Positions 8,636 through 54,776 of a DNA stretch of 64,000 nt are shown here, in pieces (position 1 is the first letter of the stretch; each line of letters begins with the position of its first letter). Below the pieces are notes generated by a model. That model was not told where the DNA came from, ran no database searches, and saw nothing but the letters and a program-made list of their open reading frames with translations. Source of the stretch: an uncultured Candidatus Saccharibacteria bacterium (lineage in GTDB: Bacteria; Patescibacteriota; Minisyncoccia; Phycocordibacterales; UBA5272); contig CAZJDZ010000002.1 in NCBI GenBank assembly GCA_964544935.1, positions 30,668 to 94,667 on the forward strand, in the 5' to 3' direction. A program made the position numbers and the translations under genes.

Positions 8636-8776
8636 ATGAACCGTCTGACCCATGCCCCGCCGACCAGTACCCATCTGAGTCATACCTCCGGCACCAAGAT
8701 CCTGGGCCTGTCCGCCTGCACCTCCGCCAAGCTGGCCGCCGCCGGCGCCCGAACGCCGGCCTCCGGCATCAGCTGA
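8636..8776 (+). CDS. GC-rich 46-aa peptide (MNRLTHAPPTSTHLSHTSGTKILGLSACTSAKLAAAGARTPASGIS); possibly lipobox-like (LSAC)
   Basis: ATG immediately after the conserved leader/RBS. Too short to appear in the ORF track. Speculative. Confidence 0.35.
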   Translation: MNRLTHAPPTSTHLSHTSGTKILGLSACTSAKLAAAGARTPASGIS

Positions 8777-9045
8777 CCGGTCGCGTTGGCCAAGCACATC
8801 GTCGCAGGCGGCTCATTGAAAGCGTTGTGAACTCTGTTCACTCCACTTGTCTTTGGCCGCCTGCGCGATGAACTCGCCGCACTGCGCGCGCTGCTTGCGT
8901 GCCACGGCCTCAGGTGGTCTGCCTCGAGACATCTGTAGGCGGTCCGCGGCGAGTGTCTCCGCCCCCCGAAGCCCATCTCGGCGGGGTAACCTCGGAGCTA
9001 GTTAACTTAGGACTAGCGTCATTCCGAAAGACCTGAAAGACTAAG

Positions 9046-9082
9046 TCTCCCCGAACCGCAAGGTTCGGGGGGTTTTTATTTT
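9046..9082 (+). terminator. Intrinsic terminator (ctccccgaacc-gcaa-ggttcgggggg followed by tttttattttt)
   Basis: 11-bp stem plus T-tract. Closes the GC-rich block at 8777-9045. Confidence 0.65.
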
Positions 9083-9083
9083 T

Positions 9084-10415
9084 ATGGTAGAGTTTATATA
9101 TATGTTTTCATTTTTTATACAACAAGGTTTACGTCTGCGCGGTCTGAATACGTCTGCGCGGTCTGTATCTAGTCGGGTGTATTTGGATAATGCTGGGGCG
9201 ACAGAGGTAGGAGAGCGCGCGAAGCGCGCTCTCCTAGAATCACTCGACGTATACGGCAACCCCTCAGGTATTCACAAAGAGGGGACAGAGGCAAGCGTGT
9301 TACTTGATAAAGCACGCGCACTCTGTGCAACAGTGATCAACGCACATGCATATGAGGTGTATTTCACTTCATCTGGTACAGAGTCATGTAATCTTGCAAT
9401 CCTCGGAACCTATGATGCATTTGCTACAAACTACAAACTACAAACTACAGGCTTAGCCGCACTCCCTCACATCATTGTTTCTTCTATTGAGCACCCTGCA
9501 GTTCTCGAACCTGTTCGAAGATTGGAGAAAGCGGGGAAGATTCGAGTGATCTATCTTCCAGTATATGAAGATGGAATAGTAAAGGTGAATGATCTTATAG
9601 AAGCACTTACTGACGAAACTATCTTGGTAAGTGTTATGTATGCTAATAATGAAATTGGGACACTGCAACCTATTAAAGAAATTGGTCGAGCGATAGAAAA
9701 CTGGAAACGTGAGAAAAACCTTCCACACACTGCATATCCATATTTTCATACTGATGCATGTCAGGCAGCAAATTACTGCAATCTAGATGTGCTCCGACTT
9801 AAGGCTCATATGATGACTGTTAATAGTAGTAAGGTATATGGTCCGAAAGGGTCTGCATTTCTGTACAAACGTGAAGGAGTAAAACTTTCTCCGCTATCAC
9901 ATGGTGGTGGGCAAGAGCGTACACTTCGTAGTGGGACAGAAAATGTTGCGAGTGCGTATGCATTTGGAGTTGCGCTTACTGAGGCTCAAAATATGAGAGA
10001 AGAAGAAAGTGCGCGCTTGCGCGCGCTTCGTGACGAGACAGTTGCGTCACTAAAAAGTTCAATCCCCTCAATTATTTTCTACGGAGCATTTGATGAGTAT
10101 TTTGAATTGCTACCAGCTACTAGTCAAAAGCTAAAGGCTGTCCAACGTCTCCCAAATAACATCAACTGTCGAGTACCGGGTATCTCAAGTGAGGAGATGA
10201 TTCTTCGTCTTGATGCACAAGGGTTCGCTGTCTCACATAAGTCAGCTTGTGCGTCTATGGAAACTGATGGCAGTTATGTGGTTACAGCACTTGGTGCAAC
10301 AGAAGATGAAGCCCGTGAAAATATTCGTATTAGTATGGGAAGGAGTACAACAAAAAAAGATATGGAAAAATTTGTGAAAGCAGTACAAGACATAGCTAGT
10401 AAATACAAAAAATAA
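9084..10415 (+). CDS. Cysteine desulfurase (class V aminotransferase, NifS/IscS family)
   Basis: YLDNAGAT and GNPSGIHKEG segments, a PLP-lysine region SSKVYGPKGSAFLY, an active-site Cys loop HKSACAS, and GGGQERTLRSGTENV. The true start may lie downstream of the first ATG. Confidence 0.8.
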   Translation: MVEFIYMFSFFIQQGLRLRGLNTSARSVSSRVYLDNAGATEVGERAKRALLESLDVYGNPSGIHKEGTEASVLLDKARALCATVINAHAYEVYFTSSGTESCNLAILGTYDAFATNYKLQTTGLAALPHIIVSSIEHPAVLEPVRRLEKAGKIRVIYLPVYEDGIVKVNDLIEALTDETILVSVMYANNEIGTLQPIKEIGRAIENWKREKNLPHTAYPYFHTDACQAANYCNLDVLRLKAHMMTVNSSKVYGPKGSAFLYKREGVKLSPLSHGGGQERTLRSGTENVASAYAFGVALTEAQNMREEESARLRALRDETVASLKSSIPSIIFYGAFDEYFELLPATSQKLKAVQRLPNNINCRVPGISSEEMILRLDAQGFAVSHKSACASMETDGSYVVTALGATEDEARENIRISMGRSTTKKDMEKFVKAVQDIASKYKK

Positions 10416-50777: not shown

Positions 50778-51740
50778 ATGACTGAAACAAATAGTCCAGC
50801 AAAATACTTGTATGATTCATTAAGTAATTTTTCTGATCTACAGCGTCTTATAGATGACGGAGAGAGTGAGGGGCAATATCTAGAATGCAAGACCAATGGC
50901 GGTTCTCAAGTTCCCGCAGGAACAAAAGCCCAGTTTTCAAAAGCTGTATCAGCTTTTTCAAATTCTGGTGGTGGGGTGATTGTTTGGGGTGTATCAACAA
51001 TAAATCAGACTCATACAGGACTTGATATATTAACTCAAATTGAACCTATTGGAAATATTAAAAATTTTCAAAAGCAACTAAATTTGAGCCTTCATTCACT
51101 GATGGAACCACAAATTCGAGGTTATGAGTCTAAAATAATTTTAGAAAATAAAAATGACACCAGAGGAGTGCTTATTTCATATGTTCCACCTGTTGACGGT
51201 GATCCTGTAAGGGTGCTTGCTGATGGAAAATTTTGGATAAGAAGCGGTAGCGTTAGTAGTCCGATGTCATACGAAATGATAAAAAGAATGTTTGCTGGAG
51301 CCAATGGTCCTGATATTGAAGTTCACTTTGATGAAAGGTTGATAGAAATAAATAAAACTGATAATAGTTGGACTATTCCTATTATTCTCAGTAATAAGTC
51401 AAGCGCTGTAGCGAAAGATGTCGAAATTTCAGTTACAATTATTAATGATGATGCTTGCTCGCATATATCCGGACAAAATTTCCAGGATCAATCAGCATTA
51501 AATCCTGGTAAAAAAATCTTAATGGGTGCCAGTCAAAAATCAATTTATAAAGGGAAGGATATTATGGTTGGGAAATTAAACATAAAGATGAAAATAAAAG
51601 AAGTAAGATTAACAAGAAAATTATCTTTAGGGATTAATATCTTTTGTTCTGAAATGCGAGCAAAATCATACTCAGTTACTATTTTATTAACCCAAAAAGG
51701 ATTTGTTCTCAAAGATATGAAAGCTGGGTACCTTTACTAA
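50778..51740 (+). CDS. AlbA_2 (Schlafen-like divergent ATP-binding) domain protein
   Basis: [14 protein letters not shown]...[17 protein letters not shown] matches the AlbA_2 N-terminal signature (E..EfK ... AFaNt.GG.iliGV). Confidence 0.6.
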
Positions 51741-51753
51741 CAGAAATATAACT

Positions 51754-52092
51754 ATGGACACAACAAAATTAATTATTGAGGATATTGTGGTCGGGGAAGG
51801 AGATGTGGCAAAGGCAGGGAACATGGTGACAGTACACTACATAGGGACACTCACTAATGGAACAATGTTTGATGCATCTCGTAACCATGGAGACAAAGGA
51901 TTCAGTTTCACTCTTGGTGCAGGGCAGGTGATCAAGGGATGGGACTTAGGAGTTGCCGGCATGAAGGTTGGAGGAAAGCGTAAGCTCACTATTCCATCTG
52001 ACCTCGCATACGGTGATCAAGCAGTTGGTGGAGTTATTCCCGCTAATTCAACACTCATCTTTGAAGTAGAACTTCTCAGTGTAGGTAAGTAA
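51754..52092 (+). CDS. FKBP-type peptidyl-prolyl cis-trans isomerase
   Basis: [16 protein letters not shown]...GQVIKGWD...[15 protein letters not shown]. Confidence 0.85.
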
Positions 52093-52108
52093 AAATAAAT
52101 CGTACATC

Positions 52109-52158
52109 AAAAATAGCTTCTTATGGACAATCGTTCATGAGAAGCTATTTTGTTATTT
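52109..52158 (+). terminator. Intrinsic terminator (aaaatagcttct...agaagctatttt followed by gttatttg)
   Basis: 12-bp stem plus T-rich tail. Confidence 0.7.
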
Positions 52159-52164
52159 GTAACT

Positions 52165-52460
52165 ACAGAAAAAGAAAAACCGAGGTTAGGTGAGCGCGTT
52201 GGCTTCCATTCCCTCGATTCAATTTTCGGGTACCTATTGCCAATACTCGCGACCACGAACGCTAAGGAAACTAAGGTTACCCTGAGCAAGGCCAGCCATT
52301 CGACTCCTTTCATTTAACCCGTCGTATCCTGCGGGACAGAGGCGAGGCTCCTATAGAGGATGGAGAAAGGGATTTAGATAGTTAACAAAGACTCCATCGT
52401 ATAAGATTTGGGCGTTGCGTGGTTAGGAGGTTGAAGGCTCCTAAATCCAGTGTAGCATTT
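52165..52460. ncRNA. Candidate structured non-coding RNA, ~300 nt, GC-rich; identity unresolved, with weak RNase P-like motifs such as GAGCAAGGCCA and GGCTCCTATAGAGG
   Basis: A GC-rich island inside a 470-nt intergenic gap bounded by a terminator and the next gene. Only a spurious-looking ORF present. No confident match to RNase P, tmRNA or SRP by eye. Confidence 0.3.
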
Positions 52461-52564
52461 TTGTATACCAAGGTAAGATTGACAGAGTAACGAGTATGTT
52501 CTTTTTTCTCTTTGCTAACAGCTAAGGACTACTAGCTAATCACTACGTTTGCTATACTATTTGT

Positions 52565-53509
52565 ATGTTAAAAGTCTCACATAGTCTCCCAGATATTGCT
52601 GTACTTCGTGGTGGCAATAAAGACTTCAAGCAGTCACTCATCGAAGGAGGTGAAGTGCTTGCTTCTCTTGTGAAGATTGGCTATGAACCGGTTGATGTAC
52701 TTATTGACCGTGACCTCACATGGACGTCGAAAGGTCTCCCAACTGACGCGCATGCTATCTATTCAAGAGCTCATACTGTAGTCGATACTACAGGAATGAG
52801 AGGGGAAGCGTATCAAGTGCTTGCTAAGAAGATGCAGATACCACTTATTTTTTCACATGGAGATGATGTGTCACTTAATCGTGAGGATCTCTACAGGGTG
52901 TTGCGACAGCAGAATATTAAAGTGCCAGACACGGTTGTGGTGCGAGCAAGTGCTCCACTTAATGATCAGATATTTCGTAACCTCTGGACCAAGTTCCATA
53001 CACCACTTCTTGTGCGACCTATTCATGCAGAACATGAAGCTCCTTCTAAGCTTGTAAAGATGTATCACGATCTCGAGAAGACTATTCGTGAATACCATGA
53101 GAAGGGGATAGACACCCATGTGCTCACCTATAGAAAGTATCACACTACTTCAATTGCAGTATTGCCACATTTTAGAAATGAAGAAGTATACACTCCTCTA
53201 TGGGTAGATACATTTCCATACGAAGGACAACTTCCGAACCGTGAGTCACGTATGAGCCCTCATCTTCAGTCTCCTGACTTTAGAAAAGAAAACATGAAAG
53301 CTGTTGCTACGAGGGTATACAAAGCGCTTGGTCTAGACAAGCCAGTATGTATCGATTTTATCAATCATAACAATGAGTATGTGGTGGTCAACGTAGACCT
53401 CACACCATCACTCAGAAAGGACAGTCGCTTCATGCAGTCTCTTGCAACAACTGGAGTGGATGCTGGGCATTATGTTCACGAATGTATCTTGCATGACATC
53501 GAAAGATAG
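52565..53509 (+). CDS. D-alanine--D-alanine ligase-like ATP-grasp protein
   Basis: N-terminal IAVLRGGNKDFKQSL...GYEPVDV and C-terminal VCIDFINHNNEYVVVNVDLTPSL resemble Ddl. Confidence 0.5.
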   Translation: MLKVSHSLPDIAVLRGGNKDFKQSLIEGGEVLASLVKIGYEPVDVLIDRDLTWTSKGLPTDAHAIYSRAHTVVDTTGMRGEAYQVLAKKMQIPLIFSHGDDVSLNREDLYRVLRQQNIKVPDTVVVRASAPLNDQIFRNLWTKFHTPLLVRPIHAEHEAPSKLVKMYHDLEKTIREYHEKGIDTHVLTYRKYHTTSIAVLPHFRNEEVYTPLWVDTFPYEGQLPNRESRMSPHLQSPDFRKENMKAVATRVYKALGLDKPVCIDFINHNNEYVVVNVDLTPSLRKDSRFMQSLATTGVDAGHYVHECILHDIER

Positions 53510-53622: not shown

Positions 53623-53702
53623 GAAAAATGGTAGCAAACAGTACGTTTGCTGTTCATTGTAAGTGGGTAGCCATACCCATAAGCCTCTAGGAGGTGCATA
53701 AA

Positions 53703-54776
53703 ATGGTACGAGTTCATCATGGCCGCAAGGTTGCCTATTTGAAGGCTGTCGAATCCTATCCGTGGGTTCGTATCGCGGTTTGTCGTGAAGATGGAACCAT
53801 CTTCCGTTATGCTGATTCATTTGAGTACTTCGACCAAGCAATTGCTTGGCTAGCCAATGATCACTGGAGGATTAGGGTTGCTTATCAATATGACGGGGGC
53901 GTGGATGATGAGCCTGAGCTTAATCCGGTCTACGCCGATGATCAAGTCATTGTCAACCGATCTGTAGCGGAGGGTGAGCTTTCTGTCGCAGACGAAGTTG
54001 ACTGGATTCTCCTCAATCGTGGAGATATCGTCTACAATGTGCTCGATGAGCAATTGTGGGTGGTTGACTTTGGGTACGATCGTGAACTAGAGTCCAGTGC
54101 CTATGCTCCTCGTCCGAAGATGATCCCGTCTTATCGTCGAGCACATGCCTATCAGTGGGAAGTGCCGAAAGAGCCTGATACTTTTTATAACAAGTTCGTA
54201 ACTTCAGTAAAGCGTAAGTACCCTGACAGAGAAATCGCCTCAAGGGTTGCCCCACCTTATGGTTTGGTTAGTTACCTGACATTCCCTGCACGCAGAACTT
54301 TTGTTTCTGTCGAGATCAAAAAAGATGAAGATCTCGGAAGGAACAGAATTACAAAGATTGTCGGGAAGAAGGAAATCCTGTGCCATACAGGTCTTGAGGG
54401 TCAACTTGATCTCGGAAGGAAAAACTCGGAGACCGTTAAGGGAGCTTTCGAGTCTACCCTACACGATTCTTGGGAAGCTCTTTTCCAGAAGGGGTGGGAC
54501 GTAGTCGCTATCTCTCGACGTGAGTTCTATGAGCACACGTTTGCGGGACATTGCTATCAAACTGGTAGCTACTTTGGTGCAGTCAGTGTTCCGAAAGGAT
54601 ACGCCATTGCATGGGAGAATCGAAACGACGATATGCTTCTCATTCGGCTTGGATCCAACGACACAATTCGTTGCCCACCTGAGTTCAAGGGCAAAGTCAT
54701 CGGCACAAGAGGTGGCAACATCAAAGGTATTGCTAAGAGGTTTGGTCGTGAGCACTGGCAAGTGAAGCTTGTGTAA
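53703..54776 (+). CDS. GC-rich hypothetical protein with a C-terminal KH (GXXG) RNA-binding motif; likely horizontally acquired
   Basis: KGKVIGTRGGNIKGIAKRFG near the C-terminus. The start at 53703 has a perfect SD. The body is visibly GC-rich. Confidence 0.6.
   Translation: MVRVHHGRKVAYLKAVESYPWVRIAVCREDGTIFRYADSFEYFDQAIAWLANDHWRIRVAYQYDGGVDDEPELNPVYADDQVIVNRSVAEGELSVADEVDWILLNRGDIVYNVLDEQLWVVDFGYDRELESSAYAPRPKMIPSYRRAHAYQWEVPKEPDTFYNKFVTSVKRKYPDREIASRVAPPYGLVSYLTFPARRTFVSVEIKKDEDLGRNRITKIVGKKEILCHTGLEGQLDLGRKNSETVKGAFESTLHDSWEALFQKGWDVVAISRREFYEHTFAGHCYQTGSYFGAVSVPKGYAIAWENRNDDMLLIRLGSNDTIRCPPEFKGKVIGTRGGNIKGIAKRFGREHWQVKLV

Follow-up and report, generated by a model that had tools for sequence, protein, structure and literature searches.

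What occupies the comparatively GC-rich DNA that separates a gene encoding an FKBP-type isomerase from one encoding a Ddl-like ATP-grasp protein in the genome of an uncultured bacterium? Both genes lie in a stretch of 64 kb, the whole of which was analysed (hereafter the window), and the host is placed by its Ddl-like protein among the CPR/Patescibacteria, the relatives of this protein being found in MAGs labelled Paceibacterota or 'Saccharibacteria'. The intergenic gap, from the FKBP stop codon (52092) to the Ddl-like ATG (52565), measures 472 nt, in agreement with the ~470 nt given in an earlier, sequence-only reading of this DNA, which had proposed a candidate structured RNA at 52165-52460 and listed RNase P RNA, tmRNA, SRP RNA and a novel RNA among its possible identities. 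Our analysis points with good confidence to the last of these, an independent structured RNA gene, predicted to be read from the minus strand, that would represent a new family absent from Rfam 15. What marks it as an independent sRNA gene, and upholds the earlier candidacy, is the coincidence of predicted promoter and terminator signals on one strand, a non-coding sequence and a structure backed by covariation, all of them obtained by computation, as is the conservation of the element; transcription itself is predicted on the same grounds.

A conserved element in a modest GC island

With a GC content of 0.476 against a mean of 0.403 for the window, and spacers on either side at 0.278 (52093-52164) and 0.346 (52461-52564), the block at 52165-52460 is indeed the GC-rich island that had been described, real though modest because 9.4% of all 296-nt windows are as GC-rich and the coding neighbours stand at 0.43-0.45. 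Folding of the single sequence yielded energies no better than those of shuffled sequences (z = +0.18 for the plus and -1.13 for the minus strand, neither being significant). The DNA around orthologues of the Ddl-like gene, 63-99% identical in the Ddl-like protein, was fetched (loci designated by L and a number in what follows), and 11 distinct relatives, all of them CPR/Patescibacteria MAGs, proved to carry a homologous element at the syntenic site. Eight of these elements are full-length and three are reduced (Table 1); the RNA of L025/L026/L037 is identical to that of the window.

Predicted promoter, terminator and strand of the RNA

The sequence-only reading had implicitly read the element on the plus strand. 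Three independent lines, namely promoter, terminator and G.U base pairs, all favour the minus strand instead. At the right-hand edge of the element, the minus strand carries an extended -10 box (TGCTACACT in the window, TGCTATAAT in L005 and TGATATACT in L007) that recurs at the equivalent place in all homologues; across the window, the extended -10 motif was found 21 times where 11.9 occurrences are expected. At the left-hand edge lies a hairpin followed by a U-run, a predicted terminator. Variants of the terminator stem and of the outer part of helix P4 (P4a) in the window and L013 form G.U pairs on the minus strand that become A.C mismatches on the plus strand, and the helices of the model, when read on the minus strand, contain 11 G.U cells versus 2 A.C cells. 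From these signals, the RNA would have an extended -10 promoter of its own, divergent from that of the Ddl-like gene, and an intrinsic terminator of its own, at which it would converge with the FKBP gene; the predicted transcript is ~268 nt long and would run from ~52442 to ~52175, start and 3' end being likewise predicted.

The FKBP gene is followed by a terminator hairpin of its own (52110-52151, 19 bp), flanked by an A-run on the left and a T-run on the right. Lying between the FKBP and RNA genes, this hairpin resembles a bidirectional terminator and could back up that of the RNA.

Structure of the RNA

A plain, unfitted MAFFT alignment of eight sequences was used as input to RNAalifold, which independently predicted helices P4 and P5 (Table 1). 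In this alignment, compensatory changes affect 10 of the 19 pairs of P4 and P5 and 96.7% of the cells are paired, compared with 26-45% in a control in which the partners were displaced by 1-3 columns. In 500 shuffles, the observed covariation was never attained; this statistic overstates significance, as the evidence base consists of 8 full-length and 3 reduced sequences that are phylogenetically related. Taken singly, P4 has compensatory changes at 5 of 11 pairs (95.5% of cells paired) and P5 at 5 of 8 (98.4%). P4a occurs as AGCC/GGCU, AACG/CGUU, GACG/CGUC and AGUG/CACU, and the outer part of P5 (P5a) as GGGUA/UACCC, AGGUA/UACCU, AGAUA/UAUCU and GGGAUA/UAUCCC. The stem-forming segments noted earlier are therefore validated by comparison with relatives only, single-sequence folding having failed to set them apart from shuffles.

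A second alignment, made by hand, took the invariant motifs as anchors and masked variable loops with N; it adds P3, P6 and a proposed pseudoknot to the model. It has 94.4% of cells paired and 18 of 34 pairs changed on both sides, counts that are supportive and do not amount to a formal test, this alignment being fitted to the model and the sequences being related. The P6 stem is found as GCG/CGC, GUG/CAC, GUGG/CCAC and GUAG/CUAC, and the changes in P3 were counted in the 5 sequences having this helix, which is missing in L007, L021 and L042. Altogether, the pattern of covariation is supportive of helices P3, P4, P5 and P6. The evidence for P1 is weaker, the sequences of this hairpin being unalignable between subgroups.

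The molecule would fold into a 5' hairpin (P1), a hairpin of variable length (P3), a helix with an invariant core (P4) and then P5 enclosing P6, with a pseudoknot between the strand following P1 and the loop of P6. The core of P4 has the form 5'-NNNN-UCG-C-C...G-U-CGA-WU-NNNN-3' and includes a conserved C.U mismatch as well as a bulge of 2 nt (AU/UU); a K-turn reading of this core was discarded, the tandem G.A pairs being missing. The linker between P4 and P5 may pair with a conserved GGCA at 52239-52242. The P6 loop segment CGUGG (52253-52257) is a perfect complement of the CCACG that follows P1, and both are invariant in all eight full-length members. As neither strand varies, covariation is not possible between them, and we infer from their complementarity that CCACG:CGUGG probably closes the fold as a pseudoknot.

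An unconstrained minimum free energy (MFE) fold of the minus strand also yields P1, P3 and P4, and extends CCACG:CGUGG into a longer, nested helix in competition with P5/P6. Covariation speaks for P5 and P6 over this nested helix. The MFE-favoured extension (CCACGCAACGC/GCGUUCGUGG) was dropped beyond its first 5 pairs because it is not kept in L006, L014, L007 and L021 and competes with the covarying P6 stem.

Table 1. Genes, transcription signals and structural elements at the locus, in window coordinates, and homologues of the RNA in related loci, in the coordinates of each locus
Feature	Position	Strand	Basis or remarks
FKBP-type isomerase gene	51754-52092		Pfam PF00254
Intrinsic terminator (predicted), CGAGGG...CCUCGG stem, then UUUUUCUUUUU	52169-52216	-	Hairpin and U-run in 10/11 homologues
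P5, GGGUA-A-CCU/AGG-UACCC, encloses P6	52228-52282	-	Compensatory pairs, unfitted alignment
P6 hairpin, GCG/CGC, invariant loop UCGUGG	52248-52263	-	Stem covaries (hand alignment)
Conserved linker, GGCCUUGCUCA	52283-52293	-	GCCUUGC in most homologues (alignment)
P4, 5'-AGCC-UCG-C-CUCU...GGAG-U-CGA-AU-GGCU-3'	52294-52349	-	RNAalifold and compensatory changes
P3, long hairpin of variable length, outer helix CUUAUA/UAUAGG	52350-52405	-	6/6 outer pairs changed on both sides
Invariant CCACG, within CCACGCA (52422-52416)	52418-52422	-	8/8 full-length homologues
P1, 5' hairpin UUAGGAG/CUCCUAA	52423-52444	-	Hairpin of unrelated sequence at this place in 8/8 full-length homologues
Extended -10 box (predicted promoter), TGCTACACT	52449-52457	-	TGnTAnAnT at equivalent place in 11/11 homologues
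Ddl-like ATP-grasp gene	52565-53509		Weak Pfam match, PF07478
Full-length homologues: L025/L026/L037, L013, L014, L006, L005, L007, L021/L022, L042/L043			Between upstream gene and Ddl-like gene
Reduced homologue, L046	2256-2420	-	
Reduced homologue, L012	3409-3565	-	
Reduced homologue, L023		-	Ends uncertain

Distribution and size variants

A covariance model built on P4-P5 (R1) found exactly one copy per positive locus, on the minus strand every time, and neither a second copy in the window nor any copy in the loci that have no element beside the Ddl-like gene. The element is missing from this site in L008-L011, L015, L018-L020, L024 and L044, and the 3-9 kb fetched around the Ddl-like gene of L008-L011, L015, L018, L024 and L044 contained no copy of it. 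Since several of the relatives that have no element beside the Ddl-like gene are as close as the carriers, the element appears to be either dispensable or mobile in the genome. A motif pattern specific to the RNA, scanned over 241 million JGI metagenome records, returned 15 stretches, one of them a true match (the L025 contig) and the other 14 unrelated high-GC chance matches; the same scan of viral contigs returned 0 matches. The family, at least in its present form, would seem to be rare.

The predicted length of the RNA ranges across homologues from ~157 to 285 nt. The shortest forms, those of L012 and L046 (~157-165 nt), retain the P4 core, UCGCC/GUCGAWU, for which L023 has GUCGUUU on the 3' side; an automated terminator call that would reduce the latter RNA to 95 nt looks spurious, as a stronger terminator lies further downstream. 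The P4 helix core is the sole part common to every size variant. That the reduced orthologues keep only this core, together with a different pairing in L012, is suggestive of rapid remodelling of the peripheral domains. The L012 pairing is an apparent loop-to-downstream interaction of its own, between GGAUGC in a hairpin loop and a downstream GCAUCC.

What the RNA may do

The genomes of CPR bacteria are very small and contain little non-coding DNA, so that a conserved structured RNA of 270 nt with a predicted promoter and terminator of its own is unlikely to be idle. Our preference, a tentative one held with rather less than even confidence, is for a trans-acting RNA that would work as a ribonucleoprotein, with the P4 core as its protein-binding site and the pseudoknotted P5/P6 domain as an accessory or regulatory module found in the longer forms only. 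The P4 core is given this role since no other module is retained across all the size variants. A possible parallel, offered as a lead only, is with the Y RNAs bound by Ro/Rsr, in which the conserved element, the Ro-binding stem, is likewise a bulged helix and the remainder is free to vary, as it is around the P4 core here with its fixed mismatch and bulge. The core sequence of the new RNA differs, however, the Rfam Y RNA model does not match it, and there is no rsr-like gene nearby.

The alternative that fares best is an ordinary base-pairing sRNA, in which the conserved single-stranded CCACGCAACGCC and GCCUUGCUCA would act as seeds for mRNAs and the helices as scaffold. A stand-alone unit from promoter to terminator, of a size typical of sRNAs and with conserved unpaired segments, is what such a regulator would look like. 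We nevertheless consider this explanation unlikely, if worth keeping in view, as the invariant nucleotides lie mostly in helices and in mutually complementary hairpin loops (CCACG, CGUGG), the P4 core, which is conserved more strongly than any other module, is double-stranded, and seed-type sRNAs usually have a simpler fold.

A ligand-sensing or catalytic RNA, be it an orphan riboswitch-like sRNA or a ribozyme, would account for the pseudoknotted core and for several invariant nucleotides at junctions and in loops. Alternative folds are also possible, since the conserved GGAAG in the terminator loop complements UUCC in the P5-P6 linker within the subgroup of the window. This explanation is nonetheless improbable: the minus strand has no downstream gene for it to regulate, the neighbours being convergent and variable; the reduced variants do without the pseudoknot domain; and the RNA bears no likeness to known ribozyme or riboswitch classes.

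Whichever its function, the RNA that we favour as a ribonucleoprotein component shares a number of general features with orphan non-coding RNAs of complex fold such as the raiA motif RNA and OLE RNA, both of which are in Rfam and were found by comparative genomics. The likeness extends to their stand-alone, non-coding nature, their length of a few hundred nucleotides, their covarying helices, likely pseudoknot and invariant nucleotides, their confinement to one lineage, and a function that cannot be read from the neighbouring genes. Unlike them, the new RNA has its host in a different phylum (CPR/Patescibacteria) and is far more plastic in size, a single helix core being universally kept; there is no likeness in sequence or structure, no Rfam model matching at E<=10.

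Comparison with known RNA families

All 4227 models of Rfam 15 were searched at gathering threshold and then with permissive filters at E<=10. At gathering threshold, the 64-kb window and 17 related loci (121 kb) yielded two tRNAs only. At E<=10, the block of the window matched no family apart from a fortuitous 29 nt at its edge that scored E 8.8 with a mammalian lncRNA model; three other weak matches fell on the hairpin behind the FKBP gene, at 52110-52151. The window, L021 and L005 gave scattered chance matches at this level (terminator-like hairpins, snoRNA, miRNA), with no family recurring. No RNase P, tmRNA, SRP or 6S model scored at E<=10, ARAGORN found no tmRNA, standard or permuted, and searches of the literature for structured RNAs of CPR/Patescibacteria yielded nothing relevant. 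Among the identities proposed earlier, it is thus the novel RNA, matching no Rfam family at E<=10, that fits.

A highly divergent RNase P RNA, tmRNA, SRP RNA or 6S RNA that the Rfam models missed is, in our view, very improbable. What speaks for it is that a pseudoknotted multi-helix fold of ~270 nt is within the range of small RNase P RNAs, that neither the rest of the 64-kb window nor the 121 kb of related loci yielded any RNase P RNA, tmRNA, SRP RNA or 6S RNA, and that string matches of 11-14 nt to E. coli M1 RNA had been noted. The quoted strings are present (GAGCAAGGCCA at 52284 and GGCTCCTATAGAGG at 52346), as is a reading frame, ANTRDHER* (52239-52265), that had been considered as a tmRNA tag. 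The strings are, however, unconserved chance matches on the wrong strand: GAGCAAGGCCA becomes GAGCATGGACA in L006 and GTGCAATGTCA in L013, and ACAGAGGCGAGGCU, on the plus strand, is not conserved in L005, L007 and L014. No such model matched any of three divergent homologues at E<=10. The invariant motifs of the family (CCACGCA, UCGCC, GUCGAWU and UCGUGG) also differ from what we take to be the defining motifs of the older families, namely CR-I/CR-V of RNase P RNA, the acceptor and T-arm of tmRNA and helix 8 of SRP RNA.

A direct comparison is with RNase P RNA of types A and B, the lead of the sequence-only reading, which the new RNA resembles in the length of the smallest members, in its multi-helix fold and in having a long-range closing pairing. 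In RNase P RNA, the P4 pseudoknot is made of the universally conserved CR-I (GAGGAAAGUCC-like) and CR-V (ACAGAA..GGCUUA-like) strands, helix P1 joins the 5' and 3' ends, and the gene is essential, single-copy and of full size in all relatives. The new RNA has no covariance-model match, no CR-I/CR-V pseudoknot and no P1 helix joining its ends, which are local hairpins not paired with each other, and it lies on the strand opposite the quoted motif matches. Its orthologues have shrunk to ~157-165 nt in L012 and L046, where only P4 is kept, and the site is empty in other close relatives; essential housekeeping or catalytic RNAs are not known to shrink or vanish in this way between close relatives.

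The remaining candidates fare no better. A tmRNA has a tRNA-like domain (an acceptor stem with a G.U pair, a T-arm and a 3' CCA) and a tag reading frame. The ANTRDHER* frame overlies the P6 hairpin and the adjacent linker on the strand predicted not to be transcribed, and plus-strand readings of AUUCGAC with GGUUACC as tmRNA-like, and of CUCGA-UUCAAUU-UCGGG as a T-arm, were rejected, both being unconserved in L006 and on the wrong strand. Helix 8 of SRP RNA has a conserved GNRA tetraloop with symmetric and asymmetric internal loops; here, no helix-8 motif is present, the hairpin tips of P3 and P4 vary more than any other part, and UCGUGG is the one loop that is conserved. Finally, 6S RNA is rod-like, its 5' and 3' ends pairing around a large central bubble, whereas the covariation of the new RNA describes local hairpins (P3, P4 and P5/P6) and no end-to-end rod.

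Relation to the Ddl-like gene and to reading frames

Wherever it was found, the element directly precedes the Ddl-like gene, a location that would befit a plus-strand, cis-regulatory leader of that gene (riboswitch or attenuator); P5, moreover, is palindrome-like and could form on either strand. We give this explanation hardly any credence. One reason is the promoter of the Ddl-like gene itself: a box of the same extended -10 type (TGCTATACT, window 52550-52567) lies 6-7 nt before the ATG in all relatives, downstream of the element, and is conserved in those with and without it. Such a position directly before the start codon suggests that the Ddl-like mRNA is leaderless and would start downstream of the element, which thus does not appear to be its leader. 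In addition, the predicted promoter and terminator of the element and the 11-to-2 ratio of G.U to A.C cells favour the minus strand, and many Ddl-like orthologues have no element.

Similar -10 boxes lie 1-13 nt before other long ORFs of the window (38015+, 25306+, 20335+ and 58236-). At five further boxes of the form TGNTAYAMT (8426+, 11897+, 17036+, 41733+ and 55430+), no ORF of >=60 aa begins in the next 60 nt; such boxes may be fortuitous, or may drive further non-coding RNAs. Between the divergent promoters of the RNA and the Ddl-like gene (~52510-52545) are repeated TAGCTA-like boxes (CTAACAGCTAAGGACTACTAGCTAATC) that are kept in several relatives; they are also present upstream of the Ddl-like gene in L006, L013 and L011, and may constitute an operator for a DNA-binding regulator.

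The element is non-coding because 1-2-nt indels interrupt its conserved blocks among homologues and the longer of the two ORFs overlapping it (68 aa, minus strand) is not conserved, a UAA directly following the AUG in L013. The overlap of this ORF and of a 55-aa one on the plus strand might point to a protein gene, either in decay and reduced to a remnant, or small and read in an alternative genetic code. This explanation has next to no chance of being right, considering these indels and the L013 stop, the lack of a Pfam match for either ORF, compensatory base-pair changes that are not expected of a coding remnant, and neighbouring genes that read normally in table 11.

Genomic neighbourhood and significance

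The genes that separate the one for the RNR small subunit from the 3' end of the RNA differ between near-identical strains. The window has Schlafen/AlbA_2 and FKBP genes there (50778-52092) and L025 has AbiH (8724-9587), the Ddl-like protein of L025 being 99% identical and its RNA identical to those of the window; other relatives have unrelated hypothetical proteins at this position. Because the sequences of the window and L025 diverge directly after the U-run of the RNA terminator, the site beside it may be an insertion hotspot for defence genes. On the other side, downstream of the Ddl-like gene, a 360-aa ORF (53694-54776) has a weak C-terminal KH_1 match (GKVIGTRGGNIKGIAKRFG) as its only Pfam hit and its product may bind RNA; this ORF is confined to the closest relatives and has no consistent linkage with the RNA.

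A bolder reading, which we regard as speculative and unlikely to be right in all its parts, would make the RNA the first member of a new, CPR/Patescibacteria-specific class of pseudoknotted RNAs. Its invariant core (the C.U/bulge helix of P4 together with the tertiary pairing CCACG:CGUGG) would have a biochemical function of its own, whether catalysis, ligand sensing or that of an essential ribonucleoprotein subunit, and would not be a simple antisense device; its 3' end would mark a hotspot for the exchange of Schlafen/AlbA_2 and AbiH genes.

The narrow distribution of the RNA, with a dozen metagenomic relatives and a single true match in 241 million JGI records, limits the importance of the finding. 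The locus also calls for caution in annotation, as what looks like a plus-strand leader of the Ddl-like gene would be a divergent gene on the minus strand. For the biology of this group, the RNA would add, from a poorly explored part of the tree, a new family outside the 4227 of Rfam, with a compact and testable core made of one bulged helix and one putative loop-strand pairing.
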